From positions 57,023 to 121,022 of IMG/VR virus record IMGVR_UViG_3300045988_166195: a DNA stretch of 64,000 nt, one strand, 5' to 3'. Each line of letters starts with the position of its first letter. Positions within the stretch are counted from its first letter, which is position 1. Below the pieces are notes generated by a model, which did no database searches, was not told the origin of the DNA, and saw only the letters and a program-made list of their open reading frames with translations. The DNA comes from a virus. Positions 979-52,428 of the stretch are shown here, in pieces. The translations under genes were made by a program, and so were the position numbers.

Positions 979-1052
979 GGCACTGCACTGTATGTATTCA
1001 ACGATCTTTATTTAAAAAATAGATGCGATTTGAAGTAACTTGAAAGAAAGGT

Positions 1053-21125: not shown

Positions 21126-21153
21126 ACCCGTTCCAAGAAAGGAAATATTTATC

Positions 21154-22476: not shown

Positions 22477-22509
22477 AAACACGTGGCGATGATGGAAAGG
22501 AAGGGTGTT

Positions 22510-23349: not shown

Positions 23350-23392
23350 GTCTTGCTTGAAAGCGGGGCCTACTTCATCGTTTTGCCATGTT
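23350..23392 (+). terminator. Weak hairpin + T-rich tract after paralog 2
   Basis: ggtaggtcttgcttgaaagcggggcctacttcatcgttttgcc read directly. Confidence 0.25.
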
Positions 23393-23427
23393 ATCGTTGC
23401 AATAGTGCGATATACTGGTATACGAGT
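23391..23427 (+). promoter_or_regulatory. Second copy of conserved upstream motif (TTGCAATAGTGCGATATACTGGTATACGAG)
   Basis: 31/33 identical to the copy at 22441-22476. Confidence 0.5.
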
Positions 23428-23457
23428 CGAATGCAACTAAATGAAAGGAAGATGGTC

Positions 23458-28658: not shown

Positions 28659-29012
28659 TCAGTCAAGGCCGAGAGCGACAGCGATACCGTCCTGAATGGT
28701 CTCCAGCTCATGGTCTTCCACATGGCCGATGCGGCTCGTGAGTCGTGACTTATCGACGTTTGCCACCTGATTGCACACAGCAATTGATTCTCGGCTGTTG
28801 ACGTGAACCGTGGGGTTGGTGGTGTTGGTACGACGCTGCTTGTTCGGGGACGTGAGATAAACGACCTGGACGACACCAGATCGCTGGTTGATACCATCGT
28901 TGCTCACGATAACGGCAGGTCGTCCAGACCAGATTTCATTGCCAACAGTTCCGCCACCGGGGACGGGTGCGGCTTCGACGAACCAAATGTCGCCTTGGCG
29001 GATAGCACGCAT
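28659..29012 (-). CDS. MazF/PemK-family endoribonuclease toxin-like protein (solitary)
   Basis: MRAIRQGDIWFVEAAPVPGGGTVGNEIWSGRPAVIVSNDGINQRSGVVQVVYLTS matches the PemK/MazF N-terminal signature (GDIWwvdfdP..GsE..g.RPavVvS.d..N). RBS GAAAGGAG 5 nt upstream of ATG 29012. The longer ORF-track start at 29123 is unlikely. Confidence 0.6.
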   Translation of the reverse strand: MRAIRQGDIWFVEAAPVPGGGTVGNEIWSGRPAVIVSNDGINQRSGVVQVVYLTSPNKQRRTNTTNPTVHVNSRESIAVCNQVANVDKSRLTSRIGHVEDHELETIQDGIAVALGLD

Positions 29013-29030
29013 GTGCGCTCCTTTCGAGTA

Positions 29031-29049
29031 GGGGGGGGGTAGGGGGGGG
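29031..29049. repeat. Homopolymer tracts G9-TA-G8 (C8-TA-C9 on the coding strand of the mazF-like gene), in its 5' leader/promoter
   Basis: Counted directly: 29031-29039 = 9 G, 29042-29049 = 8 G. Confidence 0.85.
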
Positions 29050-29067
29050 TTGAGTAGATAGAGTGTG

Positions 29068-29105
29068 AGGGTGCCACATTGCCCCTGGGATTTCCCAGGG
29101 GCAAT
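29068..29105. terminator. Perfect 16-bp hairpin gccacattgcccctgg-gatttc-ccaggggcaatgtggc downstream of the UvrD-like gene
   Basis: Read directly. Lies between stop 29133 and the poly-G tracts. Confidence 0.6.
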
Positions 29106-29132
29106 GTGGCAGGAGGACGGCATAAGGGCTTG

Positions 29133-32100
29133 TCAGTCCTCGTCCGTCGTCGGATCACTTGGATCCGCAGTAAGACCAGCAACGATGTTTCGAATCTGAT
29201 CGAGATCGTTCTGTGCTGGTTGGGTGGTGCCCACCTGAGCAGCGTCTGTCTGATCAGACGGGATTGCATCCTCGATGGCATCAAGGACATCATCCTCGTC
29301 AACGACGATCGCGTCGACAGCATGGTTCTCACCATCGTCATCAACGTCGTTACCAGAGGTGGGGTTGGTCAGCGAATCAACGATGAGGTTGTAGTCGCTG
29401 ACGATGCGAGCCGACAGCGTGGTGCCGTGAGAAAGAACGAAGAGGCTGTTCTTGGCGCGCGTGAACGCGACGTAATACAGCCTCTTCTTCTCTTCGCTCA
29501 TGTCCGACTGGTCCTTGTAGATGACAACGACGTTGTCAAACTCAAGGCCCTTGACACCATGGACCGTCGACACGATCAGATCCGCCTTGGTTTCAAGGTT
29601 GCGAATCTTGCGTTCCTCGTTGTTGCGATGCATAAGAGCATCGCGAATCGAGTTGTGGCGAATCTCGTGGTCCAAGATGCACTTCTTCAAACGATCGAAG
29701 AAGACCTCCTTGGTGATGATGCCTGCCTGGTATTCGTACACCCAACCCTGGATAGTGAGGGCGGACGCAGTCCACCATTCACTAGCCATCTTGGCGAGTG
29801 CTGCCTGCGCGTTCGGGTTGGCACCCGGACCCCGGCTCACGAGTTCCTTGGTGAACACAAACGACGCATTCGCCGGATCGACTGCCTCGATGTCGCCCCA
29901 GTGGTGCTCGATGAACGACGAGAAGAACGTCGACGCACGACGACGATCGGAGATCATCGAAATGACCGAGCGACCGGGGAAGAGCTCTTCCAGGCGCTTC
30001 TGGATGGCGAAAGCCTCTCGGCGGGTGAATGCCAAGAAGGCGACCTGTTCTCCGCGATTCAGGCATTCCTGGATGTAGGAGTGCGTGTGCTTCGAGAGAA
30101 GCACAGGCAGGTCGCTGAGGAACTTCCTATCTGCCGTGTAGTGCTCATGCACAACACGCACCTTGTCCTGGAACGACTGTGCCGTCACAGGGGTCAGCGA
30201 ATTAGCTCGCAGACGGATCTGCGCAAACTGATTTGCCTCGATCTCAGACAAGAGGTGGATATTTGCCATGTCCAAGACTTCCTGGTTGGAGCGATAGTTC
30301 GTCTCCAGCTTGTACGGCGTGAAGACACCGGATGATTCGAGTGCATTCAGAGCCTTCGGGTTCGCTGAACGGAACTCATAGAGCGTCTGCGAACTGTCCC
30401 CCACGATAAAGAGCGAACAGCCCAGCTTGTTCACCAGACGAAGCAGGTAGATGAACTCGAAGACCGAGTTATCTTGAACTTCGTCAATGATGAGGTGACG
30501 GATGTTCAACCCAGCAGGCAGCGGCATCTTGTCGATCATCTGGTAAGCCAGGATGATCTCAAGCTCTAGCGATGTCTGCTTGATAAGGTTGAGCGCGTCA
30601 ACTGTCTGCTCCAGGTGTGACTCGATGAAGTTGTTCAGCGCGGTGTGTGCACCCTCAGAGTTACGACCCTCCAGCCTGCGGAGCTTCTCAGCAAACTGGA
30701 ACGCGAACGGATCCCCCGGCATGTAGATGCCCAAGGAGTTAGCGATCGTCTCCACAGAGCTCAGCTCGTGGGTGGGGAAGTAGCTCATATACAGATCGTG
30801 AATCATCCGCGCGATTGTCATGGAACGAACGTTGGGATTCTTCTTGATAATGTTGTCCGCCGCTGCGTTGGTGAACGACAAGACAGTGATGTCAGACGGA
30901 TTGACACCGCACAGACCAAGCTGTTGGATACGAGCCAGAATGACCGTGCTCTTACCAGCCCCTGCGCCTGCTTGAGTCAGGATGAGCGGCTCAGTCGATT
31001 GCACAGCAGCAAGCTGCTGAGGCGAGAGCTGTCGCTGTACAGGGATGGTCTTGATGGTCTCTGGTGCACGCTCCAGCTGATCGCGCTTGCTACCGAGGTC
31101 GCTGAGCGTGTCGTTCATGAGCAGGTTCATGTTCTGCTTGACCAGAAGCGAAGCGGTCTGGGGGTCACAGAGCATGTTGATGGACTCGTAGATCTTGCGA
31201 TACGCCGACAACGGAACGTTGTACTGCTCCATGTAGCGCAGTTCGTAGACCATCTGGGCCAACTGCTCATCGTCGTAGGAATGCTTCTTCGACACAAGAG
31301 CGTCAATGACATCGTGAATGTCATCAGCGATGTCATCGCTGCTCCAGCGCTGCGCACTGTCCGTGATGTTGTCGTAGACGCTGTACTCAGCGTAGAACGT
31401 CGCCAACGTGTCAAGGAAGTCGCGCTTACGCGAGTGACTGATACCCGTAGCACGGAAGATCTCATCCCACGGCAGATTCTCTGCGTCCTCAGCGGGAGCG
31501 TAGCTCCAGTCAGCGATGGCCCACGCCAGGTTGGCGTTGCTCATCTTGACGGCCTTGTTGGGGAAGGTGCTGATCGTCGTGCTGAGCAGAGTCGCACGCT
31601 CGCGGTAACTCTCATCCTCAGTGAGGATGAGTGTGTCGTCTGCCTCGTCGTCGAACAGAGCGATGTCATCATCGTCGACCTCGATGAAGTCGGGATCGTC
31701 AGGATTGATGGTGCCAAGGTCGTTGATGAGACGGGCAAGCATCTGATCATTCAGATCATCGATGTCTTCGTCCTGCTTGGGCGGGACAACGTAGATCATC
31801 GTGCGATACGAGATCTGAAGATCCTTCACCTTGGTCTTGCCGCTGTTGTCTTCGCGCATAGCAAGGCCCTGCACAGAGCACGATGCCCACACGTCAAACG
31901 TGTTGGTGTCATCGGTGAGACGCACGGCGAACTGGTCCATGTCATCGGGGACGGGTACAGTCATGCGACCGTAGCCCTGCTCGTAGGCACGCTTCACGAT
32001 GGTGCCAGTCGGGATGATACGGCTGGTGACTGCATTGGATGTCTGCGACATCTTGTAGCGAAGGTCTGTGGTTCCCATGCTGAGACGATCCAGTCCCATG

Positions 32101-32273
32101 GGATAGCGGCCTGGGATAACAGAGCTGTTGAGCAAGCCCTGCTTCTTACCACGGCCAGTAAGATGCGACGAGAAGTACTTGGGCGTCACCGCTTTAATGG
32201 TGCGGGCCTTGGTAGCTTCGACAGCAGTGCTGAACTTGGCTGCTTCGTCGATATTATCGAGGAGGATGGGCAT
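29133..32273 (-). CDS. UvrD/PcrA-like SF1 helicase with ~420-aa N-terminal domain of unknown function
   Basis: Motifs AGAGAGKST (I), LSFTNAAADNI (Ia), LIIDEVQDNSVFE (II), VGDSSQTLYEFRSANP (III), TNYRSNQEV (IV), VSTVHGVKGLEFDNVVVI (VI). Excellent RBS gaaaggagggctcATG. Confidence 0.8.
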   Translation of the reverse strand: MPILLDNIDEAAKFSTAVEATKARTIKAVTPKYFSSHLTGRGKKQGLLNSSVIPGRYPMGLDRLSMGTTDLRYKMSQTSNAVTSRIIPTGTIVKRAYEQGYGRMTVPVPDDMDQFAVRLTDDTNTFDVWASCSVQGLAMREDNSGKTKVKDLQISYRTMIYVVPPKQDEDIDDLNDQMLARLINDLGTINPDDPDFIEVDDDDIALFDDEADDTLILTEDESYRERATLLSTTISTFPNKAVKMSNANLAWAIADWSYAPAEDAENLPWDEIFRATGISHSRKRDFLDTLATFYAEYSVYDNITDSAQRWSSDDIADDIHDVIDALVSKKHSYDDEQLAQMVYELRYMEQYNVPLSAYRKIYESINMLCDPQTASLLVKQNMNLLMNDTLSDLGSKRDQLERAPETIKTIPVQRQLSPQQLAAVQSTEPLILTQAGAGAGKSTVILARIQQLGLCGVNPSDITVLSFTNAAADNIIKKNPNVRSMTIARMIHDLYMSYFPTHELSSVETIANSLGIYMPGDPFAFQFAEKLRRLEGRNSEGAHTALNNFIESHLEQTVDALNLIKQTSLELEIILAYQMIDKMPLPAGLNIRHLIIDEVQDNSVFEFIYLLRLVNKLGCSLFIVGDSSQTLYEFRSANPKALNALESSGVFTPYKLETNYRSNQEVLDMANIHLLSEIEANQFAQIRLRANSLTPVTAQSFQDKVRVVHEHYTADRKFLSDLPVLLSKHTHSYIQECLNRGEQVAFLAFTRREAFAIQKRLEELFPGRSVISMISDRRRASTFFSSFIEHHWGDIEAVDPANASFVFTKELVSRGPGANPNAQAALAKMASEWWTASALTIQGWVYEYQAGIITKEVFFDRLKKCILDHEIRHNSIRDALMHRNNEERKIRNLETKADLIVSTVHGVKGLEFDNVVVIYKDQSDMSEEKKRLYYVAFTRAKNSLFVLSHGTTLSARIVSDYNLIVDSLTNPTSGNDVDDDGENHAVDAIVVDEDDVLDAIEDAIPSDQTDAAQVGTTQPAQNDLDQIRNIVAGLTADPSDPTTDED

Positions 32274-32282
32274 ATGAGCCCT

Positions 32283-32308
32283 CCTTTCTATTTGAATAAA
32301 GAAGAATT
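32283..32308 (-). promoter_or_regulatory. Tandem TTTATTCAA direct repeats (mRNA sense: tttattcaattcttctttattcaaatag) immediately upstream of UvrD-like RBS
   Basis: The same tandem motif is seen upstream of the Clp2 gene (35280-35306) and the MoxR gene (38433-38457). A single copy lies upstream of the 52333 gene. Confidence 0.4.
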
Positions 32309-32393
32309 GAATAAATGTGTGTATTATCGATCGGCCCGTTAGCGTGTGTTGCCAATAGGCCGACCGATGAAAACAGTGTTGTGGGGATGGGGG

Positions 32394-33065
32394 TTATACG
32401 AGCTTGTAGCCGACGATTGCCATATCATCGCCACTGTCAGGATCGATGAGCGTTCCCACATCGGGCAGATCGCTCAGTGGCTGGTCGTAGAGACAGCCCT
32501 TTTCGTCCGTGTAGACGATATGCATCGAGTCAAGGTTCTTGTTGAGCTTGGGCGCATAGGGTGACAGCAGACCGTAGAGTGCGAGGGTGCTATCGACCTG
32601 CTTTTCCCATGCCGGGGCAAGGGTTGTCTCAATGAGACGCGCGAGGTCTTCCTTCGTCTCGATGTCTTTGAGCATGCAGGGTGTCGTGCGCAGATACTGC
32701 GCAGCACGGCGTCGACTGTCATCGCTGATGATGGCGTTGTAACGATCGTTGGGGTCGTCTTCTCGCAGCCAATACCAGCCATTGTCAAGTGCATACATGG
32801 GCGCACCGGTTCGGGCATCAGAAAGATGGAGATCGACGAGCTGGCGAAGCCACGGGAACGCTCGAAGGATGTGGTCATGGACCATGCCGCAATCGTCGGG
32901 CTCGTTGTCGAAAAAGAATCCATCGTTGTCCTGGCGTTCGTAGTACACTTCCCCAGTAACGCTGATGCGGTCATCGTTAATGCCGTATGTGGCGATGACC
33001 TTGATGCGGGTTCCGTTGGTCTCGGTGAGGATGTCTTCAACGGTATGCGTGCATGTGTAACGCAT
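32394..33065 (-). CDS. Hypothetical 223-aa acidic protein
   Basis: RBS aaggagccataccATG. No motif recognised. Confidence 0.5.
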   Translation of the reverse strand: MRYTCTHTVEDILTETNGTRIKVIATYGINDDRISVTGEVYYERQDNDGFFFDNEPDDCGMVHDHILRAFPWLRQLVDLHLSDARTGAPMYALDNGWYWLREDDPNDRYNAIISDDSRRRAAQYLRTTPCMLKDIETKEDLARLIETTLAPAWEKQVDSTLALYGLLSPYAPKLNKNLDSMHIVYTDEKGCLYDQPLSDLPDVGTLIDPDSGDDMAIVGYKLV

Positions 33066-33145
33066 GGGTATGGCTCCTTATGGGTAAGTGATGGGGTATG
33101 TGGACGTGGTTCGCCTACGCAACGTTTGTTACGTAGGCGAACCGG

Positions 33146-33373
33146 TTAGAAGCGGGTAAGAATCGGTGTCTTACTGTTATCTGAGATGAGATCTTCAAGA
33201 GACCCATCAGTGAGATACTCACCCTGTGCGGAGATCCATGCTGGAGTCATATCATCCCCACGGAGGTATCGGAAGAACACCATTCCATCGAAAGTGATGA
33301 CGGATCCACCAGGGAGCTGAGAAGTCTTCACCAGGAGGTTGTCCCCAGAGGGGTAGGTAACGATAGAGATCAT
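33146..33373 (-). CDS. Hypothetical 75-aa protein
   Basis: RBS gaaaggaccagcaATG. Tightly spaced ahead of the Clp2 gene. Confidence 0.45.
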   Translation of the reverse strand: MISIVTYPSGDNLLVKTSQLPGGSVITFDGMVFFRYLRGDDMTPAWISAQGEYLTDGSLEDLISDNSKTPILTRF

Positions 33374-33388
33374 TGCTGGTCCTTTCTA

Positions 33389-35263
33389 TTAGTTGTTCGC
33401 AGCAGAGAGTAGAGAGTCTTCGATGAAGCCTCGAATAGCTCGAACAGCGGGGCGCGCGCCTTGGTCTTTCAGGTATGTCTCTGCCACCAATCGATCGATG
33501 GTGTCATCGTCGATGGGATCGAAGCTCATACCTGGGTTCTCAGCGCAGATTCGTGCAACTTGGCGATCGTATTCATCACGCAGAATCTCTGCGTATTCGC
33601 TGGTCCCTAGCGGCATGAATGCGATGAGGTCATCAAACCGGCCAAGTAGTTCCGCATCAAAGCTATTCTGTAGCTCATTGGTGAGCGATTGCTTTGAAAT
33701 ACTCTGCGTATGGTTACCAAACCCCATCTGGGATCCAGAGAGCTTCTGCCTGCCAGCATTCGTTGTTGCGATGACAATGCAACGAGACATGTCGACGGCG
33801 GGGCCGTTGGCCATCTGGATTTCGCCAGTATCGAGTGCGGAGAGGAACAGTCGCTGTACCGACATGTGTGCCTTCTCGAACTCATCCAGAACGATGACTC
33901 GATAGGGGTTCGATACCAAGGTATCGAACGGGCGCTCTCGTGCACTCTCAGAGCCAACATAGCCAGAGGGGGAACCAATGATCCGGTTGATCGTGTGCGC
34001 ATCGTGGAACTCTGCCATGTTGAGCAGGATGGGTTCCTGTCCTGTGACCATCTGGGAGATGATCTTGGCAGTCTCGGACTTGCCCACGCCGGATGCCCCA
34101 GCGAAAAGCCACGACGTTGGTCGCGTTTGGGGGAAGATGTTCAGCTCGCGCCTGCGTAGTGCGTCAACGAGACGCGGAAGCACGTCCTCCTGGCCCTTCA
34201 ACCTGGAGAGTTCACTCTCCAGAGTCTCGACATCAAGCTGCGGCGGCTGTGACTGGCCGGTCACAAGCAGCATGGCGATCGTGTTGAGACGCTTGGAGGT
34301 CAGCGGGATCTGGGTGATCTGCTGAAGCATCTGCGCATACGAGGTGTTGCCAGAGGCGAGTGCTTCCTGGATCGCAGCGTGATGGCTGATCACGCTGTGG
34401 CTGAGAGCTCGATCGAGCAATGTGATGGCAGTATCGGGGCGATGCCCGGTACTCATGAGACGATCAGCGGTAGCAACGATGTCATCGAGGACATCAGATG
34501 CAACGCTGACCTTGTTCTGGTAGTGCGTGAGCATGTCGGGTAGAACGACATCGAGAATCGAGCGAGTCTGCTCTCGGTTAAGCTCATCGACGATGACAGA
34601 CGAGAAGCGACGCTTGAATGCCGGATCATCGTCAAGACGCTTTGCCTCACCCATCGTCGTTGCTGCGATGACACGTAGGTATCCTCGGGCCAACGCAGGC
34701 TTGAGGATTTGTGCAATCTTGCTGTAGGTGGGATTGCTGTCATCAGCAATGATGTGGATCTCATCAATGAAGAGCAGTGCGTCATTATCTGGATCCTGAG
34801 CGAACTTGATAATGTCGGTGATGCGGTTCTCTAGCTCACCGACGATGCCAGCGCCAGCGACAAGCGTGGCGATCGGCAGCTCATAGATGGTGGTGTTTTT
34901 GAGCTGCGGAGGCACGGATGCCTCCTGGTTGGCGATGCGCCTGGCAATCTCTTCGACGATGGCGGTTTTGCCAACACCTGCTGGACCAACAAGAAGCGCG
35001 TTCGGCTTACGCGACGACGAAATGATGCTCATCGTCTGAGTGACGATCTCGTCACGGAAGAGCGCCGGAGAGGACTTCTTGTGTTCTTCGTTGTAGTTGA
35101 TGAGCATGTCATCAATCTCGGAGCCACCGGTAATGGTGTGATTGTGCGATGGCGCAGACGGGCCAACGCTGACGATGTTGGGTGCACCAGAGCCAACGCC
35201 TGATCCGGTTGGGTTGTTGGTGCTGTCGTCATCGTTACCGGGCGTGAAGTTGGACAGGCCCAT
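33389..35263 (-). CDS. Second ClpA/ClpB/ClpC-family double AAA+ ATPase (no inteins)
   Basis: D1: NALLVGPAGVGKTAIVEEIARRIA, LFIDEIHII, LRVIAATT, FKRRF. D2: WLFAGASGVGKSETAKIIS, GSPSGYVGSESARERPFDTL, VIVLDEFEKAH, RLFLSALDTGEIQMANGPAVDMSRCIVIATTNAG. RBS aaggaggcacgcctATG. Confidence 0.8.
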   Translation of the reverse strand: MGLSNFTPGNDDDSTNNPTGSGVGSGAPNIVSVGPSAPSHNHTITGGSEIDDMLINYNEEHKKSSPALFRDEIVTQTMSIISSSRKPNALLVGPAGVGKTAIVEEIARRIANQEASVPPQLKNTTIYELPIATLVAGAGIVGELENRITDIIKFAQDPDNDALLFIDEIHIIADDSNPTYSKIAQILKPALARGYLRVIAATTMGEAKRLDDDPAFKRRFSSVIVDELNREQTRSILDVVLPDMLTHYQNKVSVASDVLDDIVATADRLMSTGHRPDTAITLLDRALSHSVISHHAAIQEALASGNTSYAQMLQQITQIPLTSKRLNTIAMLLVTGQSQPPQLDVETLESELSRLKGQEDVLPRLVDALRRRELNIFPQTRPTSWLFAGASGVGKSETAKIISQMVTGQEPILLNMAEFHDAHTINRIIGSPSGYVGSESARERPFDTLVSNPYRVIVLDEFEKAHMSVQRLFLSALDTGEIQMANGPAVDMSRCIVIATTNAGRQKLSGSQMGFGNHTQSISKQSLTNELQNSFDAELLGRFDDLIAFMPLGTSEYAEILRDEYDRQVARICAENPGMSFDPIDDDTIDRLVAETYLKDQGARPAVRAIRGFIEDSLLSAANN

Positions 35264-35307
35264 AGGCGTGCCTCCTTTTTTGAATAAATGGGAATTGAAT
35301 GAATAGT

Positions 35308-35372
35308 TTGTGGACCCTCCCTCCCTCTCTTTTTCACCAGTAGATGGCTAAAAGAGGGGAGAGAGGGCGCAG
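35308..35372 (-). terminator. CT-rich imperfect hairpin (ccctccctccctctcttttt ... aaaagaggggagagaggg) after the vWA gene
   Basis: Read directly between stop 35375 and the Clp2 upstream motif. Confidence 0.35.
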
Positions 35373-35374
35373 TG

Positions 35375-37075
35375 TCACTTGGTCATGCCGAGGATACGAG
35401 AGCCCGTGGTGGGATCGATCGTCTTCATGTGGTGAGTGAAATCTATAGCGCTTTGGCGCAAAAATTCGTACCAGTTATCCGGGACAGAGATCGGCACATA
35501 GTACAGATTCTCAGGCACGTCGATGTGGTACGAGCCAGGCCACCATTCGAAGTCGGTGATCACCAGGTTAAGTCGACGCTTGAACGGAGGATTCTCGTTA
35601 ATGAGCTTGTAGATCTGCTCATAGTCCGTACCACCGCTCACCTTAGGCACGGCAGCAAACTGCTTCCACACCTGGGTGATGGAACGGTCCTTGATACGAA
35701 GACGCACAGGCGTTGGCATGACGTGCGAGAAACTCGTGAAGTACAGATCCACGCCCATTCGCTTGGCAAACTGAATGAGCATCTTGATCGTATCCTCGTA
35801 GTTCTCGGTGGAGATAGACCCGGAGGTATCCAGGTAGATGTGGATGTCCGGCATATACTTGCGAGACACAATCTTGCCTGGCTTGTTCGGATCGTTAGGC
35901 TGACGCCTGTTCGCTCGAACAAAGCTCGTGCTGACATTCCTGATGGAATTGAGCGACTGGTTGACCTTAGACATGCGCGTGAGGACACGCATGACCGACT
36001 TGTAAATGTCAACCGGTCGTGTGGGTCGCTTGCGGAACACAACGCGACCGCTACGGCCCGCTTGGTGCTGTGCGTTGGACAAGCTGTTGGCAGCTTGCGC
36101 GGACGCCTTTTGCTGGGCGCGAGCGAGCGCAGTGAGCTTGCTGAGCTGACCGGGCGTGACAAGTTTGACCGGGTTGTGGAGGGACTTCATGATGAGATCC
36201 CACTCAGCGTTGATCTTGCGCATCGACGCCCTGGCATGAGCCTCGACATTGATGAGGACCAACGTACGAGGCAGTGCCAACTCAGCGATGCTGAAGGGCA
36301 GCATGCCGCACGTTTCAGGCGCACCAGGCTGGCTTGGCTGCTGCATGTGGGTCCACGTACTGAGAGCCCACATGAGGATACGTGCGAATGAGTACTCGTT
36401 GAGAGCCTGTGAATCATTTGCTCGCAGAATGAGAGACTCAGTGAGGCCGCTGAGGTCGATCTTGTCAAACTGCTGGAACATCCGGTTATCAGCCGGGGTG
36501 ATGTTCGATGAGATCTTGGCGAGTTCGCCGCGTAGCCACGTCTTGAAGCTGTCGAATTCTGCATCCGTACGGAACCAGAAGCCGACAGTGTGCGGGTGGA
36601 AAGTCCATCCCAAAGACACCAGCAGGAGATCCGTACCGGCATTGCCAGCAAGAACATCCTTGGCCGTAGGCATCACGTCGCTCTGCGTGGTGTACAGAGC
36701 CTTGCTGGGATCAGGCAGCTTACAACGCGCTGCTGCTTGGGTGATGAACACTTCGTCGACAGGCGATGATGCGGACGGAATCCATCGAACAAGGGACTGT
36801 TCGAAGATCACGCGCATGGTGGCCTGCGCGTCTGCGTCGAGAACCTCGCCAACGGCGCGAAGGAGCAGATCGTTGACTCCATCAGAGTCAACATCGCGTC
36901 CGTCGATCGTCAGATCGACATTACCGCCTGGGGTAAGCGGCTCGAAGACGGTCTGCGTGATCATCGTGTCGAGCGTGACGAGGGGTTCGCAATCACCCGT
37001 GAAAGGGGCGATAGGAACATACTGGTCGATATGATTGGGCTTTTGCCCGGTTAGGGTAATGGATGGAGAAGCCAT
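35375..37075 (-). CDS. von Willebrand factor A (vWA, MIDAS) domain protein with ~390-aa N-terminal region of unknown function
   Basis: C-terminal IHIYLDTSGSISTENYEDTIKMLIQFAKRMGVDLYFTSFSH (DxSxS MIDAS). RBS agaaaggggcaccgATG. Overlaps/abuts the MoxR gene upstream. Confidence 0.7.
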   Translation of the reverse strand: MASPSITLTGQKPNHIDQYVPIAPFTGDCEPLVTLDTMITQTVFEPLTPGGNVDLTIDGRDVDSDGVNDLLLRAVGEVLDADAQATMRVIFEQSLVRWIPSASSPVDEVFITQAAARCKLPDPSKALYTTQSDVMPTAKDVLAGNAGTDLLLVSLGWTFHPHTVGFWFRTDAEFDSFKTWLRGELAKISSNITPADNRMFQQFDKIDLSGLTESLILRANDSQALNEYSFARILMWALSTWTHMQQPSQPGAPETCGMLPFSIAELALPRTLVLINVEAHARASMRKINAEWDLIMKSLHNPVKLVTPGQLSKLTALARAQQKASAQAANSLSNAQHQAGRSGRVVFRKRPTRPVDIYKSVMRVLTRMSKVNQSLNSIRNVSTSFVRANRRQPNDPNKPGKIVSRKYMPDIHIYLDTSGSISTENYEDTIKMLIQFAKRMGVDLYFTSFSHVMPTPVRLRIKDRSITQVWKQFAAVPKVSGGTDYEQIYKLINENPPFKRRLNLVITDFEWWPGSYHIDVPENLYYVPISVPDNWYEFLRQSAIDFTHHMKTIDPTTGSRILGMTK

Positions 37076-37176
37076 CGGTGCCCCTTTCTTGAAAACGGGG
37101 GATAAAGCTATATGTGGTCGTGTCCGGCGTAGCCGAAGGAGAATGAAGCGCTACGCCGGACACGATGCTTGTGAAC

Positions 37177-38429
37177 TCAGTCGATGCCCATGGCTGCGAT
37201 GACCGTGTTGATCTTGAGCGCGACGCCATCGCTGAGATGCATGAGAGTTTCGCAGTTCTTCTTATAGAGTGCGCCACTCGACCACAAGACAATGAGATCG
37301 TTGATATGGCTCTGTTCGAGCTTGTCGAGTCGTGCATTCAACGCCTGGATGATCACATGGTTGTCTTCGCGCTCGTACATAGCGAACACGAGGCAACCGG
37401 ATGCGTCGTTGTCGGTCATGGTTGCAACAACCTGGTTGACGGCATCAATGCTGTTCGTCGCGGCCTTCTTGAGCTCGCTATAGATGCGAGGCTTGACAAC
37501 CCGTTGAGCGTTGTTGTTACCAGTACTGCCCTTGCTGAGCTCATCACTGATGACGCCCATCAGCAAGGTGGTGAACGAGGTGTTGCCGGTCATACCTTCG
37601 ATGACCTCCTGAAGATAGGAGACATGTCGACCGTCTCGGGTCGTCGACGGAGTAGCCATGAGACTGGCAACCTCTTCGAACGACAGGACGCCCAGGTACT
37701 GAGAGACGCCGTCGATCGTACGCGGGGTAGCGAACGGTCGGATCTCTTCGGTTCCGTCGAAAAGGTCGAAGACGGACACCGTGGCGTTGTCGTCATCATC
37801 GTCGTCTTGACCATCTGCGACAGCCTGCTCGTTGGTGTTCTTGACGAACACCGTCTCAGGGTGCTTTTCGAGCACAGTCTTCACCCACGGGTGGAGGTTC
37901 TGACCAAGAACCTCGATAAGCGTCGACGCATCAGGCGCGACATTGATGATGGTGAAACGCGAAACAGATGCATCATCCAGAGCAGTGACGTTACCCTTGT
38001 CGTTACCTGCGACAATGATGCGCAGGTTCTTGGGCAAGTCTTCGTCACCGATGCGACGCAGCGTGACAAGCGTGAGAGTACCCGAAGTCACGTCAGACGT
38101 GGTTCGGTTAATCTCATCGAGAAAGAGAATCGGCTGCTCATTCGGGTTCTCCTTGGCGTAATTGATCGCCTGGGAAATAACCGAATGCGGGAAGAACTTC
38201 TGAGACCACACTCCCGTCTTCTCGTCCAGAACAAGGCGTGCGCCCGTTAGGTCAGCTTTATCGGCCAACAGGTTGCAGGGCAAGGTAAAGCACCGGGTGT
38301 TGGTGCGTCGGGCCACGTCCTCGACGAACGAGGACTTGCCGATGCCCGGCTCGCCCATGAGGGCTGGGACGCGGTTGGCGTCCAGTAGCTTGACCGTGGT
38401 GGTGACAAGCAGTTCGTTGAAGAGCATAT
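37177..38429 (-). CDS. MoxR/CbbQ-like AAA+ ATPase (AAA_5)
   Basis: ALMGEPGIGKSSFVEDVAR (Walker A), ILFLDEINRTTSDV (Walker B with Asn), RIIVAGN. Start at ATG 38429 with AGGAGGA RBS; the ORF-track start 38631 is probably too long. Confidence 0.75.
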
Positions 38430-38613
38430 TTCCTCCTGAATAAAATTGGTTGAATAAAGTCATGGAGTCAGACCGCGCCGTGAGGCGGTCTGACTCTCTA
38501 TTTCTTGTCTCGGGTCGTACTTTGTACGACCGTCCATAACTCTCCCGAAAACCCTGGTGTTCCAGTAGAATGGATACATAGCACTGGACATACATAGGAG
38601 AGGTGAGAGAGTT

Positions 38614-40483: not shown

Positions 40484-41503
40484 TTATTCAGTCGTTTCTC
40501 GTGTTGTCACAACACGGGTAGCGAGATTAAGCAACAACGGCATGTCACTGCGGGTCTCATCGTGTTTTGCACGATGCTCCAGATAATGATTAAGCGTCTC
40601 GTAGATCAGCCATGACGCGGCCTCGCTGTCGACAATGATGTTATTCATGGGGATGCTCTCTCCAGAAGACAGGCTGATGGTTTGGGGGCTGACTCGCAAC
40701 TGAAGCAAGTTGTTGTAAGCGTATTGGGCGTATGCCCATTCGTAACGAGAATGATCATGCTCGAAGTTGTCAAGTGTGCGACCAAAAAAGCGCGAACGAG
40801 CAATGAGAGTACGGAGAACCGGTTCATACCAATCGTGTTCTGGTCGCTTATCGGTGTTGATACTGTCGTATGTGACGACTGGTGCGTTGTTTGCATCTTC
40901 TGCGACGGATCGCCACACTTGGTCCCAGAGATCCTGATCGACAGTTGTTGAGACAGGCATCGGGGTGGGGTTGCGCGTGTATGTGACGAAGTGGTTAGAC
41001 TGCAAGATCTCCCACCACCCGTGCGGACCTTTGAGAACTGCCTTGCTCACTGCAACAGTCAGTTCATTGAACGATGGGGGCAAGGGGAGAAGCAAGTGAT
41101 AGCCCTTGCCGGACAAAGATGTTTCAGCGTACAGAGCGCCGATCGTAAGAAGGCTGTCTCGTACGTCGGCGGGGCATGTCTTCTCGATGTCGAGAACGAC
41201 GCAACCCTGGGAAGGTGCGTCGACGAACATGGCGCAGTTGGCGGCGGTGGGGAGCCCTGCGGTTAGCTCATCGAGAGTGACGAGCACGCGTTCATCGCGT
41301 GCCCATGCGCCGCGCACAGGGCCTGGATGTGTACATCCAGAGCAGCCGTTCAGCAAATGACGCATGTCGATCGGCATCTTGGAGGTTGGATCGGAAACGG
41401 TCCAGATGGCACGAGGGCCAAGAACGTGTTGGATGATCTCGTTGTTGTAGAAGTGGGGGAATGCGACCCGTGGGTCAAAGGTGTCAGTTGAAGACACGGT
41501 CAT
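40484..41503 (-). CDS. Primase-polymerase (PrimPol / archaeo-eukaryotic primase superfamily) domain protein
   Basis: CVVLDIEKT (DxD/DxE catalytic motif), SGKGYHLLLPL (the conserved sGxGyHhy motif of PrimPol). RBS gaaagggctcaccATG. Confidence 0.5.
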   Translation of the reverse strand: MTVSSTDTFDPRVAFPHFYNNEIIQHVLGPRAIWTVSDPTSKMPIDMRHLLNGCSGCTHPGPVRGAWARDERVLVTLDELTAGLPTAANCAMFVDAPSQGCVVLDIEKTCPADVRDSLLTIGALYAETSLSGKGYHLLLPLPPSFNELTVAVSKAVLKGPHGWWEILQSNHFVTYTRNPTPMPVSTTVDQDLWDQVWRSVAEDANNAPVVTYDSINTDKRPEHDWYEPVLRTLIARSRFFGRTLDNFEHDHSRYEWAYAQYAYNNLLQLRVSPQTISLSSGESIPMNNIIVDSEAASWLIYETLNHYLEHRAKHDETRSDMPLLLNLATRVVTTRETTE

Positions 41504-41634: not shown

Positions 41635-42675
41635 TCAGATAGCCCAGGGGCTATCGACAGATGCCTCAGGAGCAACCGGCTGAGGCTGGGCCTCAGGGGT
41701 CACGCCGAAGGCAGACGCGGGGTCGGCCTGAACGGGAGCCTGCTGCTGCGCGACAGCGTTGAGAAGCTGTGCGGCCTGCGGGTTAGGCGTAGCCGGAGCA
41801 ACAGCTGGAACCACAGGAACAGCGGGCGCAACGGGCGCGACAGCCTGGGTCACCGGGGCAGGCATTGCCAGCCCCGAAATTGCGTCGACCACCGTGTTCT
41901 GAGGCGCAGCCTGCTGAACGGCGGGAACAACCGGAACCGCAGGGGCGACAGGTGCCTGAACCGGTGCGACAGGCTGAGCAACAGCTGGAGCCACAGGAGC
42001 GGCGACGGGCGCGGCAACCTGCTGAGCAGGCTCGTTCATGACAACGCCTTCCTGAGCGACGATCGGGCCGCTCAGCGTGATGCCGAGAGCCGCGAGTGCG
42101 TTGTTGTTGACAGCAGAATTGCCACCGGAGAACCACTCGGGCTCGCCATCGAAGATGATGGTCTGAAGGCCGATGCCGTTGTTGGCGTTCATACCAGACG
42201 AGTAGACGTTGAGAACAACGGTGACGAGCTGATCTCGTGCTGGCTCCGTTGGCATCGACATGGTCGACGCAGGGATCTCATTGTCTGTAATCTGCACAGC
42301 CTTGCCGTTGACAACCTTGAGAAGAACCGGCAAGCGGTTCCCCTTGTTGTCAATGCTCCAACGATTGCCTAGTTCGGGCTTATCGGGAGTTTGGAACAAA
42401 CGCTCATAGACGTAGTACTCTTCCAGATCAGGCTTGCCATCGGGACTCTTGAAGACGACTTCAACGTTGGATAGCGAGAGTCGCGTGAGCGGCTTGTTGC
42501 GGTCCAGCGGGTAGAACGGTGCACCGGGCTTGCGATTAGCGCGACGGGTCTCGTTGAGCTTGTCGATGTCTTCAGGTCCCATGAGACTGCGCACACGGGC
42601 GTATTCGATCTTGCCTCGTAGGATGATCGTAGAACCAGGGCGGATCTGCGATGCGGTAATTTGGTGAGTAGCCAT
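41635..42675 (-). CDS. Hypothetical protein: N-terminal ~200-aa globular domain (possible OB-fold ssDNA-binding protein) + Pro/Ala/Val-rich low-complexity C-terminal half
   Basis: RBS gaaggagaccaaaacATG. PAV repeats (APVAAPVAPAVAQPVAPVQAPVAPAVPVVPAV). The function assignment is a guess. Confidence 0.5.
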   Translation of the reverse strand: MATHQITASQIRPGSTIILRGKIEYARVRSLMGPEDIDKLNETRRANRKPGAPFYPLDRNKPLTRLSLSNVEVVFKSPDGKPDLEEYYVYERLFQTPDKPELGNRWSIDNKGNRLPVLLKVVNGKAVQITDNEIPASTMSMPTEPARDQLVTVVLNVYSSGMNANNGIGLQTIIFDGEPEWFSGGNSAVNNNALAALGITLSGPIVAQEGVVMNEPAQQVAAPVAAPVAPAVAQPVAPVQAPVAPAVPVVPAVQQAAPQNTVVDAISGLAMPAPVTQAVAPVAPAVPVVPAVAPATPNPQAAQLLNAVAQQQAPVQADPASAFGVTPEAQPQPVAPEASVDSPWAI

Positions 42676-48527: not shown

Positions 48528-51500
48528 TTATTCTTGTTCCGGCTCTTGCTCTGGGATCGTATTCATCCAGTTCGACTCGTACGAATCACAGAACATCTGG
48601 GCATAGGTATCCAGATCCAGTTGTTCGATGAGAGCGCGGCGCTGATCCTCGCTCAGACACATGAGATCCTCGTTGAGAACCATCATGTGCCAGGTAGGCT
48701 CGATACCGGTGATCTTGCGGATAGAAATATCCTGATCAACCGGAGCCTGCTGGATGCTGTACTGATGCGCAGTCATTGCATCTGGCGCATAGCCGTTAGC
48801 GATCATGATTGCATTGGCGGTTGCGTCAGTGCGCACCACGGGAGCGTCGCCGCGCTTCTTGCGTGACTGGGCCACTGTGGCGTTGACTTTCCATGCACCG
48901 GCTGCACGCAAAGAGACTGCGCCCTCGGTGCCCGGCTTGACGACGAACACCCGGTTGTAGTGCTGGAGCGCTCGCGGGTTGCGAGCTGCCAGCTCAGGAG
49001 AATCCTCCTGATCCACAGGGATGGGATCTGCCGCGTAGTGGAACGTGAGCATACCAGGAGAGGCTGCGATGACGTTCTGGAAGAGTAGCAACGCTTCCAC
49101 GCTGTCTTCCTGATGCGCGATCGCCGTCATGATGTCTCGCGCAGTATCTGGGTCAACTGGCTTGTTGATGAGCTCAGGGTTCGTCACCGCGATTGCTCGT
49201 AGGTACACAGCCATTGCTCGATCGAGCGCGGCTGGGTGAGCCAACGAGTTCGTGGGCGATGGCTTGCGCCAACATGCCAGAGACGAGCCTGATGCGCTGA
49301 GAATCTTTGCATCCTGGGGCTTAGCAGTACCGTCTGCATACGCAGGTGGTACAGCCAACTCGATACGGTTGTTCGAGTCCTTGGACACAAGGAGCAGCTC
49401 TTCAGGCTCGATCAAGACATGGATACGCTCAGACTGCTCATCGAGCACCCTGTTGTTTGTCTCCAGGTCGATGTCTGCCGAGTACAGACCATCGGTGTTT
49501 GTCGAGATGATGCGAGCGCCCTCAAGAGTCTGAGCTTGCCCGATCATCCAGGAGAACAACTGGCCGATCAGTCTCATGGAGATGATCATGTTGTTCATGC
49601 GGATGGGGGAGCCTTCGAACTCAGTGTCTCCTGCGCCGGAAGCGCTGTTGAGCAGCAGCTTGACACCGCTTCGCTTGGAGACGAACATATCGCGCTCTTC
49701 AGTAGTGATGGAGGGATCCTTCATCAGCTGACCGAACCGCTCCTTGTCCAGGTAGAGCTTGCCGTAGCGGTCCTCGCCCAATGCCTCGTTGTAGAACGCG
49801 GAGAGGTTGGTGAGCAGCAAAGGGTAGTACGACGAGAAGTCCTCGTGGACGGCCTTAGCTACCGATGTCATCGCATACTTAGGATCAAGCTTGGTTGACC
49901 CATCGCTGCGCTTGAGGAATAGCTCTTTGTTACGCACAGGCTTGAAGAATGCGCCTCGCTCTGGCTTGGGCGACGACTTACTCATCAAGACCTGCTGCCA
50001 CGGGATGACCCGTTCATCGGGCAGGGTGACGCGGATGCTCTTGCGGATGGCCATGGCTTGCTCTGGTTCAGGCAGATTGCGAACATGGAGAGTCTCAATG
50101 ACCGCGTCAATGAGATCTCGTAGAGCATTCGCCTCAGCGTTGTGATCCTTGAAGAGGACCATGTTTGCTTCAGCGCCGTGGATGCCACCGGTTGAGAACG
50201 TCGCGAAGCACGACGTTGGTGTCCCGTCTGTTCGGAAGTAGGGAACGTTGGTGGCCCGCTTGGGGATCTCATTGAGCCGGTAAGCGCTGATCACGCCGTC
50301 GTTATCGACGTTGTTGCAGTCTGGATCAAGACTGTGGTCCTCGGTGTATGCCTTAGACCCGTTGAAGTTCTTGCCACGAATACTTGCGTAGTACTCGTAG
50401 ACCTCATCGAAAGCAGCGTGAGCGTGAGCATCTTCGATGTTCTCGTAGAAGAAGCTCTTGGCGAGTTCGAGAACGTCGAATTGCTCGATGCCCAGTTCCT
50501 GCGCACGTTGCTTGGACGGATACATGAACGACACCGTCTTGATGTCCTTCAGCCGTTCGTAGGGAGCGAGGACGCGTGCAACGAACTTCGCTGACGTTGA
50601 GTCAGGAGTTAGTCGATCACGACGAACACGATCGGGCCTGCAATCCGGCTTTGACTTGGAACCGTTCACAGCCTGGTAGACGGTCTCAGGATAGTCAACC
50701 ATCAAGGCGTGCTTGAGGTCGAACCCGCCTGAGTATGTCGGGTGATCTGCTAGGTACGCCAGATTGACAACGTCGCTGACGTTGTAGGCGATCAGTTCGA
50801 TGAGATCATCGATTGTTTCGATGATCGAGTCATGCTTCAACCGATCGGATTCGAGGATCTGGTAACCCAGCATGCCAAGCAGGCGCTTGAGGCCCACACG
50901 TTGCTGCTTCTCATTGAAGCGTGCGATGTCCAGGTGCCTACCGGAATGAAGCATAGATCGCCTGACCTTGTTCGCCGTCCCGTCCCAGCCCTTACCGTTA
51001 GCAACAGCAGAAGAGGTGAGGTACAACGGCATCTGACGGATGTACTCATCCGTGAAGAGCACATCATTATGCTTGCGGATCGTCTTTGCAGTCACAGGGG
51101 TGGTGCGCCTGAATGCAAGCTTGCATGTTTCCATCATCTCTTCATAGATACGACGTTTCTCATTGTCTGTCGTGGCGAGCATGGCACGTTCACGAGCCTG
51201 ACGGACAGGCTCCTGCGTTCTTTCCATGACGCTTGCGAGGTAAATACTCATGAGGGTCGTGTCATAGTTGGCGGAGTTATAGCCGCATACGAACGGATGA
51301 ACCTCAGGATCGTAGTTCGGATCCGTGTCGCATACAGGGCGGTACTCTCGCAAGTACGTACTCTGGGAATGTGGGTCGTTCACTGAGGCTGCATCGCTGA
51401 GACCAATCATGCGGGCGAGCAGATGATTAGCTTCCCACTTCGCTAGGTTGTGCAAGCGTAGGATGGGTGTTTCACTGTGTTTCCAGAGGCGCGCCCAGGC

Positions 51501-51720
51501 TGGATTGCGCTTCAGAATGGCCGCGAGCACTGTGTCGTGGTCCAAGTCGCGGCGACGCAGCGCATCACCGACGGGGGTGCCCACGTCGACGAGATAGAAC
51601 ACATTGAGAGCACGGGTTTCACGGTCGAAGAAAGCAACGGTGAACACGTTGGTGAGTGACTCGATGTCCCAGAAGACGAATCGAGCTTTCTTGTAGGTGG
51701 TTCGCTTCATATGAGCTACC
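48528..51720 (-). CDS. Family-B DNA polymerase with N-terminal 3'-5' exonuclease domain
   Basis: FVFWDIESLTNVF (Exo I DxE), KLLLNSASGAG (motif B KxxxNSxYG), ISTNTDGLYS (motif C-like). Start ATG 51720 (MKRTTYKK) has a G8 run as SD. The alternative upstream ATG 51746 lacks an RBS. Confidence 0.6.
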
Positions 51721-51728
51721 CCCCCCTT

Positions 51729-51736
51729 CGTTGATA
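51729..51736. repeat. C8 (G8 on the coding strand) homopolymer at the SD / 5' end of the polymerase gene
   Basis: Counted directly. Confidence 0.8.
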
Positions 51737-51742
51737 TATCGT

Positions 51743-52333
51743 TCAAAAGAGCGTCTCTAGCTGAGGTAGCTCATGCGGAATGTAGTTCTCGATGTAGTGC
51801 TTGACTGCACTTTCGGGATTATCGGCGTAGATGTTGCACAGTGTGTCGTAATCGGGGTGATCGGGCGACACTGTCCACACGTCACCACGAGCCCACGCGA
51901 CAAAGGTGTCAACGTTGTCACGAGCGGAACCATAACCCTCCTTGACGGCTGCAATGACAGTGAACCAGGTGGACTGGTCGTAGCCATGACAGGCGATCAT
52001 GTCAACGTCGTATGGGATATTGCGCTCGGCAAGACTCTTCTTCCAGTTATTCCACCACTGGGTGGTGATGTCGCTTGGATCATCGATGTCGTCTCGCTCC
52101 ATGGCTTGAAGAAGATCGTCGATGGCCGGGTTGTCATCGTAGTCATCGATGTTGTCGGTTCGCGTGTTGCGATCGGCGTTGATGACAACGATAGCCGCCT
52201 CTTCGTGGGAGAGCCACGACCTGGGATCTTCGGCATCGGTATCCTGACAAACGGTGTAATTGACACCGTTTTCATCGGTGTATACGTCGTCTTGGCGGAT
52301 GTAACCGGCGTGTGTCGTGTGGGTGAGATTCAT
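51743..52333 (-). CDS. Hypothetical acidic protein
   Basis: Start ATG 52333 (MNLTHTTH) with gaaagggctttactcATG. A single TTTATTCAA motif lies upstream. Confidence 0.45.
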   Translation of the reverse strand: MNLTHTTHAGYIRQDDVYTDENGVNYTVCQDTDAEDPRSWLSHEEAAIVVINADRNTRTDNIDDYDDNPAIDDLLQAMERDDIDDPSDITTQWWNNWKKSLAERNIPYDVDMIACHGYDQSTWFTVIAAVKEGYGSARDNVDTFVAWARGDVWTVSPDHPDYDTLCNIYADNPESAVKHYIENYIPHELPQLETLF

Positions 52334-52428
52334 GAGTAAAGCCCTTTCTGGGTGATTGAATAAATGCCACACAACCCCTGCTCAGCGATTGTGAGACAGG
52401 GGTTGTGCAGGGTTGGTTATTGGCTGTT

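Follow-up and report, generated by a model that had tools for sequence, protein, structure and literature searches.

A conserved MoxR, vWA, Clp and UvrD-like helicase gene block as a candidate DNA-processing module in the backbone of large mobile elements

Introduction

A stretch of 64,000 nucleotides (nt), positions 57,023 to 121,022 of the IMG/VR record IMGVR_UViG_3300045988_166195 and hereafter called the window, contains seven co-directional minus-strand genes. They encode a MoxR-class ATPase, a protein with a von Willebrand factor A (vWA) domain, a Clp-type unfoldase, two small proteins, a UvrD-like helicase and a MazF-like toxin. A preliminary description of the window had proposed that they form a candidate uncharacterised conflict or defence system, and the locus raises the question of whether they belong together and what they do for the element that carries them. 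The ternary conflict systems are built around a MoxR-vWA pair (Kaur, Burroughs, Iyer, Aravind 2020; PMC7159879). Their third component is VMAP, an inactive STAND protein, a beta-propeller that is fused to the vWA protein, or a double AAA+ protein of the FtsH type whose N-terminal module is inactive, and variable effector domains lie C-terminal to the vWA domain (PMC7159879). Here, the open reading frames (ORFs) and Pfam matches confirmed the seven genes, and comparison with related loci showed that the cluster is four backbone genes with lineage-specific accessory genes between and after them, not one operon-like system. On balance we lean towards reading the four large genes as a co-regulated backbone module for DNA processing and protein remodelling in a conjugative element, and not as anti-phage defence.

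Results

Four large genes form an invariant block in related elements

The four large genes are the following (lengths in amino acids, aa).

37177..38427, minus strand: MoxR-class (AAA_5) ATPase, 416 aa; Pfam AAA_5, 7e-12; gene start placed at 38427
35375..37075, minus strand: vWA partner protein, 566 aa; without a Pfam match; metal ion-dependent adhesion site (MIDAS) motif DTSGS at residues 416-420
33389..35263, minus strand: Clp/Hsp100 class-I unfoldase, 624 aa; Pfam AAA, AAA_2 and ClpB_D2-small
29133..32273, minus strand: superfamily 1 (SF1) UvrD-like helicase, 1046 aa; Pfam UvrD-helicase, AAA_19 and UvrD_C

A pattern scan with the vWA protein gave 75 related loci (labelled L002, L070 and so on), which were then searched by tblastn with 27 window proteins; fractions are given over the loci with enough flanking sequence. 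The order MoxR, vWA, Clp, helicase was invariant in the 75 loci wherever the flank sufficed. The MoxR gene lay directly upstream of the vWA gene in all related loci listed, the Clp gene was found downstream of vWA in 70 of 72 loci, and the helicase gene downstream of Clp in every one of 68. Upstream of the block, a 346-aa gene was present in 61/73 loci and a 339-aa gene, located between the 346-aa gene and MoxR, in 68/73. Three accessory genes part the 339-aa gene from MoxR in the window and its closest relatives, and the YdjM, 147-aa and 195-aa ORFs were limited to the closest relatives. The actinobacterial hosts were Streptomyces, Promicromonospora, Arthrobacter, Kribbella, Nocardiopsis, Microbacteriaceae (Microbacterium), Brevibacterium, Saccharopolyspora and Actinomadura, and further loci came from genomes and metagenome-assembled genomes of Firmicutes (Lachnospiraceae, Eubacteriales and Bacilli). 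In Lachnospiraceae A4 the 339-aa gene was shifted to the far side, with MoxR, vWA, Clp, helicase and MazF still together.

The block was single-copy and embedded in the replication gene block of the element. The gaps between its genes reached 4 kb (vWA to Clp) and 3 kb (Clp to helicase), and the variable slots between backbone genes held insertion sequence (IS) transposases, TetR regulators and a methyltransferase. Defence cargo was considered as the content of these slots and rejected, given these occupants. The synteny on which the preliminary description had staked its proposal was thus borne out for the four large genes and failed for the 75-aa ORF, the 223-aa ORF and the MazF gene, which were not conserved. 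The proposal of a defence or conflict system was not supported by the comparison, since the block is an invariant single-copy backbone across two phyla, with 35-50% identity of the relatives' proteins to the window proteins, and not variable cargo.

Megablast of 28.0-39.5 kb against plasmids and phages gave no matches. With the vWA protein, tblastn matched three plasmids and nothing in 50,697 phage genomes. Two large plasmids, pGKT2 of Gordonia sp. KTR9 (NC_018580) and a 639 kb Streptomyces plasmid (NZ_CP109461), have a backbone collinear with the window. Its first half comprises a RecJ-type DHH protein, a P4/D5 primase, a very large protein, a glutaredoxin and an SNF2-type helicase, and its second half a small gene on the opposite strand, two conserved hypotheticals, MoxR, vWA, a Clp-type ATPase, small ORFs and a helicase of ~1000 aa. 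The plasmids differ from the window in their accessory genes, and identity is only 28-45%. Judged by this collinearity, the window element belongs with a pGKT2-like family of large conjugative elements. The small opposite-strand gene encodes a LysM protein in the window (42814-43299, plus strand), likewise in the Streptomyces plasmid, and the pGKT2 counterpart at the same backbone position is the nucleoid silencer Lsr2 (L078, 15258-15641).

Among the homologues of the vWA protein, one is listed under the source name 'cgl1759'. The Corynebacterium glutamicum gene NCgl1702 presumably lies inside the CGP3 region. NCgl1702 encodes a beta::beta' fusion RNA polymerase (PMC2919709), and cg1980, a 'MoxR-like ATPase', lies inside CGP3 (PMC5055667). 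The CGP3 element is therefore probably a family member, a link made through a database name and two papers.

Shared upstream boxes link the block to the relaxase and DNA polymerase genes

The preliminary description had also noted a tandem element upstream of the sub-operons. These boxes, and the genes outside the cluster that share them, are as follows.

38436..38458, minus strand: TTTATTCAA and TTTATTCAG in tandem, directly adjoining the Shine-Dalgarno sequence of MoxR
35280..35303, minus strand: TTCATTCAA and TTTATTCAA in tandem, upstream of Clp
32292..32315, minus strand: tandem box of two TTTATTCAA copies, upstream of the helicase gene
48528..52364, minus strand: box-marked set of a TTTATTCAA copy (52356-52364), a 196-aa ORF (51743-52333) and a DNA polymerase-like protein
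993..3392, plus strand: MobL relaxase gene, with a degenerate tandem box (TGTATTCAA, TTTATTTAA) 5' of it at 993-1015

The window contains five exact copies of TTTATTCAA, all on the minus strand, against 0.14 expected, and none of 100 shuffles reached five. In front of MoxR, Clp and helicase, the tandem boxes directly precede the Shine-Dalgarno sequence. The MoxR box was kept in L002 and partly in L070; a 92%-identical relative retained the boxes with altered spacing, and a 79% relative had a looser YTATTCA box before MoxR, vWA, Clp, the 223-aa ORF and the helicase gene. The tandem box is thus real, as is the case for co-regulation, but it is not private to the cluster, since it also precedes the DNA polymerase operon and MobL. 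Because the box is common to all of them, the set predicted to be co-regulated consists of the relaxase, DNA polymerase, MoxR, Clp and helicase genes, and for this set the idea holds as far as shared sequence can carry it.

A second, unrelated box with the core TATACTGGTATA was found before three plus-strand genes and the 346-aa gene.

21090-21150, 22440-22505 and 23385-23450, plus strand: second box GCGATATACTGGTATACGAG, upstream of three genes
about 42700, minus strand: variant GGATTATACTGGTG of the second box, before the 346-aa gene

The two box classes suggest at least two transcription classes. Sigma-70-like promoters were not enriched in the window (11 found vs 9.9 expected).

The MoxR, Clp and helicase proteins have intact active sites

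The ATPase at 37177-38427 was assigned to the MoxR class because a profile of its orthologues matched Midasin, CbbQ and NorQ. Its Walker A (GEPGIGKS) and Walker B (LFLDEINR) motifs were both conserved in the orthologue alignment. The vWA partner has an invariant D416-x-S418-G-S420 in its homologues. Its AlphaFold2 model had a predicted local distance difference test (pLDDT) score of 78; the C-terminal ~160 aa matched vWA domains, and comparison of the model showed a match of the vWA fold to NorD. The N-terminal ~330 aa were conserved and confidently modelled, with no match among solved folds. Weak structural likeness was seen to vWA and metallopeptidase-vWA proteins of phages, one of them from PBS1; the window's vWA protein lacks the HExxH peptidase motif that marks the phage type. 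The 36 aligned homologues were all 556-580 aa long with one architecture and 64% mean column identity, and among them the vWA domain is itself C-terminal, with no variable effector domains beyond it. In PHROG, MoxR matched phrog_1297 (2.5e-31) and the vWA protein phrog_1314. An AAA_5-class ATPase beside a MIDAS-bearing vWA protein is the arrangement of NorQ-NorD, CbbQ-CbbO, RavA-ViaA, BchI-BchD and the pairs of ATV and jumbo phages. The window pair differs from these chaperone pairs in that its vWA domain follows a conserved 330-aa domain and lacks a metallopeptidase motif, and in its position in the replication block of a conjugative element.

The closest Protein Data Bank (PDB) relatives of the Clp protein were ClpC and ClpE, with a resemblance greater than that to ClpB. 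Both AAA+ modules were intact (GPAGVGKT and FIDEIH in the first, D1; GASGVGKS and VLDEFEKA in the second, D2), with a GYVG pore loop; the aromatic residue of the D1 pore loop was replaced. N-domain and M-domain were both absent: homology sets in at residues ~27-60, where D1 begins, low-complexity sequence makes up the first ~60 aa, and D1 joins D2 directly without an M-domain insert. A hydrophobic-Gly-Phe/Leu loop in D2 docks such unfoldases on ClpP and is absent from ClpB, Hsp104 and ClpV. At this position, MGF of the window protein aligned with AGF of Staphylococcus aureus ClpC and VGF of ClpE. The pattern [MVIT]-G-F (MGF, VGF or IGF) was kept in 19 of 20 aligned sequences, the exception being Lachnospiraceae A4 with IGI, and it was absent from the other Clp paralogue of the element (4238-8011). 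The Clp protein probably docks on host ClpP through this conserved Gly-Phe loop. It is like ClpC, ClpE and ClpA in its two Walker-intact modules, GYVG pore loop, D2-small domain and Gly-Phe loop, and unlike them in being element-encoded, in the replaced D1 pore aromatic and in having no adaptor-binding N-domain or M-domain.

In the helicase, the core begins at residue ~415 with intact motifs (GAGAGKST, DEVQD and GDSSQTLYEFRSA) and a 2A domain, and the protein ends in an acidic C-terminal tail. Against the NCBIfam equivalog cut-offs, it scored 85.8 bits of 951 for Rep, 79 of 911 for PcrA, 67 of 1144 for UvrD and 52 of 419 for HelD; all scores are far under the cut-offs and give no orthology to a named cellular helicase. 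HelD (3e-14) and HelR (2e-10) matched weakly by E-value. The preliminary description had offered as its own alternative that the protein might be the Rep/PcrA of the element. A helicase for the element's own DNA metabolism is now better supported, though unproven, whereas orthology to the named Rep or PcrA was not found. With its intact SF1A core and a co-encoded relaxase without a helicase domain, the protein resembles the PcrA, UvrD and Rep helicases as deployed in ICEBs1 (NicK-PcrA-HelP) and rolling-circle plasmids. It differs from these enzymes, and from GajB, by a 414-aa N-terminal region restricted to its own family.

As the preliminary description had observed, this region is unrecognised: no Pfam family matched residues 1-414, and a profile search against the PDB gave noise only. 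It was conserved in every orthologue and starts with an invariant MP..FFSSxLTGxGK..GLLN, followed by a beta-rich segment and then a helical segment containing QLRYLENYNVPLEAYR; the window copy bears a lineage-specific acidic insert. An AlphaFold2 model from a shallow alignment was of low confidence (pLDDT 34). Word-indexed searches with the region, as single sequence and as profile, returned 22 close relatives only, and it was an exhaustive search of cluster representatives that revealed the family, with the region in 162 of them and at the N-terminus wherever matched. Among the 150 representatives listed, most were ~860-1460 aa, and the rest were products of ~500-720 aa (exon-1 or split genes) and short fragments. 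As far as these searches reach, the N-region is family-specific yet not rare.

In many close relatives, a group I intron splits helicase motif III (RF00028, 46.5 bits vs a curated threshold of 50, E 2e-10). In L002 it occupies 16664-17052, equivalent to ~30400 of the window, and gene prediction then yields a 630-aa 'exon 1' protein; no group I intron is present in the window copy. In an Arthrobacter relative (L063, ~15136-16197), the helicase ORF is 1381 aa long and has, after the P-loop region, an insert that is similar to the intein portion of the Clp paralogue in the window and is itself intein-like. Introns and inteins typically colonise essential information-processing genes. Because helicase orthologues host both a group I intron and an intein-like insert, a backbone role is favoured over a defence role.

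Defence scans matched generic ATPase cores

The cluster matched no named defence system, as the preliminary description had stated. The PADLOC run that it had suggested returned only generic GajB-type helicase-core and AAA+ matches. GajB models matched three stretches of the helicase core (best 5e-38), and Rep, PcrA and UvrD models matched the same regions; the D2 module of Clp scored on the PDC-M37B and DolB models, which are generic AAA+ matches. No match to GajA, OLD or TOPRIM was found by PADLOC or Pfam in the nine cluster and flanking ORFs at 27.4-39.4 kb. The cluster resembles the ternary systems (PMC7159879) in its MoxR and vWA core, its nearby double-AAA+ protein, superficially like that of the FtsH subtype, and its common occurrence in Actinobacteria. 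It differs from them (PMC7159879) in that its orthologues are one-to-one, undiversified and located on a mobile-element backbone. Pfam and PADLOC gave no FtsH or propeller match in the cluster genes, in scans that had no VMAP model, and NACHT and STAND Pfam models gave sub-threshold P-loop matches only, in the Clp protein. Unlike the FtsH type with its inactive module, the third ATPase of the cluster is of the Clp/Hsp100 type with intact Walker A and B in both modules.

MazF and the small ORFs are lineage-specific accessories

The remaining features of the cluster lie between the Clp and helicase genes or after the helicase gene.

33146..33373, minus strand: 75-aa ORF, lineage-specific accessory; no family match
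32394..33065, minus strand: 223-aa ORF, lineage-specific accessory; phrog_17696 (unknown function), 4e-15
29073..29110, minus strand: perfect 18-bp hairpin directly after the helicase stop; terminator-like without a T run, kept in relatives
29031..29049, minus strand: C8-TA-C9 tracts in the 5' region of MazF (C9 at 29031-29039, C8 at 29042-29049)
28659..29012, minus strand: MazF/PemK-fold endoribonuclease, 117 aa; Pfam PemK, 1.3e-19

The 75-aa ORF was detected only in the closest relative, L002. The 223-aa ORF was found at the same position only in L002 and L070, with a short partial match elsewhere in L041; the ORF at the corresponding position in the Streptomyces plasmid was rejected as a homologue for lack of similarity. 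MazF followed the helicase gene in 10 of 68 loci, including several distant lineages. By this distribution, the two small ORFs and MazF are accessory genes and not parts of the conserved block.

The preliminary description was right that a PemK-fold toxin is encoded here and placed its start wrongly, at 29123. The 154-aa ORF from that position, which runs through the 18-bp hairpin and two poly-C tracts, was rejected, and the start is instead ATG 29012, preceded by AAAGGAG. A catalytic Arg and a catalytic Thr aligned with those of Bacillus subtilis EndoA, R25 and T48. As also described before, no MazE- or antitoxin-like ORF lies next to MazF in the window: the upstream gap of 120 nt holds the hairpin and the poly-C tracts, and a 385-aa ORF without a family match starts 75 nt downstream. 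The toxin is thus like MazEF type II systems in its fold and catalytic residues, and unlike them in having no adjacent antitoxin gene in the window. In distant relatives (L070, 17677-18648; L027, L044, L065 and L073), a MazF-like protein has a conserved C-terminal extension of ~100 aa that is absent in the window. In L070 this gene is followed by a 96-aa ORF with a match to the Panacea (SocA) antitoxin domain (5e-11). A Panacea antitoxin was rejected for the window, which has no homologue of that ORF.

The C8 and C9 tracts, which the preliminary description had called phase-variable-looking, are present. They represent a TCCCCTA/CTCCCCTA repeat whose expansion is lineage-specific, with C3-C6 in relatives (L080-L085). 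Slippage in the tracts is plausible, and the differences in tract length among relatives are lineage divergence.

The window is part of a ~121 kb element of Actinomyces

The 1046-aa helicase protein had an identical copy on a 121,126-bp scaffold of a human metagenome, and a second assembly of 120,982 bp was broken at a different point. Neither MobL nor MazF, the latter taken from either of two start codons, had an exact protein match on record. Because the two assemblies break at different points, the ~121 kb element is probably circular. The nearest genome matches were contigs of an uncultured Actinomyces metagenome-assembled genome, and the window is part of an element of oral or gut Actinomyces. 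IMG/VR catalogues 118 kb relatives (contigs L080-L085) as viral, and one protein (P0009) bears the name 'integrin [Herelleviridae sp.]'. The 64 kb window and a further 10 kb outside it yielded no virion genes. The viral label of the relatives is doubtful, since the parts examined have a relaxase and a coupling protein and no virion genes.

Other genes of the window are the following.

4238-8011, plus strand: another Clp/Hsp100-like gene (1257 aa) that lies between those of the relaxase and the coupling protein
15448-21009, plus strand: single-chain beta::beta' (Rpb2-Rpb1-type) RNA polymerase, 1853 aa; similar in kind to C. glutamicum NCgl1702
40484..41503, minus strand: conserved 339-aa protein; primase-polymerase-like motifs LDIE and SGxGYH
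41635..42675, minus strand: conserved 346-aa protein; conserved N-terminal domain, Pro/Ala-rich tail and conserved C-terminal tip

The coupling protein is type IV and 1351 aa long. The fused RNA polymerase gene adjoins a 553-aa gene, a pairing kept in distant relatives (L062), and the window further encodes MgsA, SNF2, a D5-type primase-helicase and RecJ. A 1072-aa ORF (48528-51746, minus strand; likely start 51710, giving ~1060 aa) had no Pfam match and matched the phage DNA polymerase family phrog_1252 (5e-18), and the element seems to encode its own DNA polymerase. From its motifs, the 339-aa protein would be primase-polymerase-like, and by its layout the 346-aa protein would resemble a single-stranded DNA-binding protein (SSB). 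Profile searches of both against the PDB gave noise only, and the 339-aa protein had no Pfam match.

The second Clp paralogue appears to hold two inteins, each within a Walker-A P-loop between GK and T ('...GTGK/AHPND...VVTHN/TVLV' and '...GVGK/ATTDS...IVTHN/TEIT'). Both begin with Ala, and the second contains a LAGLIDADG endonuclease. An Rfam scan of the window gave no matches. Between the coupling protein and RNA polymerase genes, a 213-aa protein (14737-15378, minus strand) has three DUF4379 treble-clef zinc-finger repeats (2e-30).

Discussion

What holds these four genes together across so many elements? The reading that we find somewhat better than evenly supported, a DNA-processing and protein-remodelling module, draws on the invariant gene order, the location inside the replication block, the box common to the relaxase and polymerase genes, and the intact active sites of MoxR, Clp and the helicase. 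Upon activation of the element, the box-marked gene set would be expressed together. MobL, which lacks a helicase domain, would nick the element DNA, and the UvrD-type helicase, probably brought in by its N-terminal region, would start unwinding there to allow rolling-circle replication and transfer. Host PcrA unwinds for ICEBs1 and for rolling-circle plasmids. The Clp unfoldase, probably acting on host ClpP, would remodel or degrade a limiting protein such as a repressor or silencer, an initiator or the relaxase; ClpA activates RepA of P1, and ClpX activates TrfA of RK2 and the Mu transpososome. MoxR and vWA would act as chaperone and co-chaperone to restructure one such nucleoprotein complex, and MazF would be an optional addiction or stress module.

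Several points weigh against this reading. The association of the four proteins with the relaxase and the replisome comes from their genes, and their specific roles are modelled on precedents in other systems. Conserved order in the backbones of mobile elements does not by itself prove that the products act together. With a D5-type helicase already encoded, the element does not require the UvrD-like enzyme in the role of replicative helicase. As the box adjoins the Shine-Dalgarno sequence, it may function as an operator or at the RNA level rather than as a promoter. The predicted docking on ClpP comes from a three-residue motif in an alignment. Furthermore, conflict systems can contain both MoxR-vWA pairs and helicases of the UvrD-like kind.

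A serious rival, although we consider it unlikely, is that the block serves host takeover or counter-defence. Here Clp would deliver host proteins to host ClpP, for instance Lsr2/CgpS-type silencers or defence proteins such as those of restriction, MoxR-vWA would select or extract the targets, and the helicase would strip proteins from incoming element DNA or protect it. The ClpP-docking-type loop conserved in the Clp orthologues is what such a function would use, pGKT2 carries a gene for the silencer Lsr2 at the corresponding point of its backbone, SNF2 lies nearby together with further genes of the sort typically seen in anti-restriction contexts, and backbone conservation suits a function that is needed at every establishment. 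However, Pfam, PADLOC and PHROG scans gave no recognisable anti-defence domain, a role in DNA processing is indicated by the box, which the block shares with the DNA polymerase and relaxase genes, and the proposal is wholly inferential. A more specific version would join all four proteins in one new ATP-driven machine, composed of a MoxR-vWA selector, a ClpP-docking unfoldase and an SF1 helicase with an N-terminal adaptor, that strips or destroys host silencers or defence nucleases on element DNA at establishment or induction; we regard this joint claim as speculative and give it a small chance.

It is rather improbable that MoxR-vWA and Clp are chaperones of assembly or export, which would build the transfer apparatus or the virion of a phage-plasmid, or feed unfolded substrates to it. 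There are precedents for such a role, with MoxR-vWA in tail assembly of ATV and in jumbo phages and ClpV and EccA in secretion (PMC7824862), and the PHROG matches of MoxR and vWA, the weak structural likeness to phage vWA proteins including that of PBS1, and the viral listing of relatives by IMG/VR would agree with it, as would the second Clp paralogue between relaxase and coupling protein. The block is located among replication genes and not transfer genes, though, and the phage-type HExxH motif is absent; the lack of a virion gene in the window and 10 kb beyond, and of any tblastn match among the phage genomes, likewise speaks against such a role.

As a defence system, MoxR-vWA would be the sensor or regulator and Clp, helicase and MazF the effectors against phage or plasmid. 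This appears highly improbable to us. The pairing of MoxR with vWA forms the core of the ternary conflict systems (PMC7159879), the helicase core and Clp D2 score on models of defence proteins (GajB; PDC-M37B and DolB), and in several distant lineages the helicase gene is followed by a solitary MazF whose catalytic residues are intact. Yet the PADLOC matches cover only generic SF1 and AAA+ cores and come without GajA, the vWA architecture is fixed and free of variable effector domains, every family member has the block as invariant backbone rather than as patchy cargo, its upstream box is shared with relaxase and polymerase genes, and MazF is present in only 10/68 loci.

Finally, we give very little credence to the helicase being a HelD/HelR-like RNA polymerase recycling factor, perhaps for the fused polymerase, whose N-region inserts into the polymerase: the weak NCBIfam matches, the element's own beta::beta' polymerase and the invariant MP..FFSSxLTGxGK at the extreme N-terminus would fit, but Rep, PcrA and UvrD models outscore HelD with all of them far under their cut-offs, the N-region opens beta-rich in a low-confidence model and not as a Gre-like coiled coil, and no profile matched the solved HelD structures.

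The four-gene module is widespread, strongly conserved and uncharacterised, and does not constitute a new defence system. It ranks among the best-conserved parts of a large family of mobile elements, which are ~100-200 kb long and are found in Streptomyces, Arthrobacter, Gordonia, probably Corynebacterium, human-associated Actinomyces and some Firmicutes. RNA and DNA polymerases of their own are encoded by these elements along with transfer genes, and the annotation of nearly every gene in them reads 'hypothetical'; identifying the block as backbone prevents its being misfiled as a defence system. It raises the questions of what purpose an element-encoded ClpC-like unfoldase serves, what MoxR-vWA does in replication or transfer, and what the ligand is of a ~400-aa helicase domain without relatives. 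The two box classes give a handle on the scheduling of transcription, perhaps through the element's own polymerase, and pGKT2, as well as CGP3 if the link holds, are tractable models for the function of the block. If the stripping machine were true, hundreds of actinobacterial and firmicute elements, probably including CGP3, would share a counter-silencing or counter-defence apparatus of a new class.

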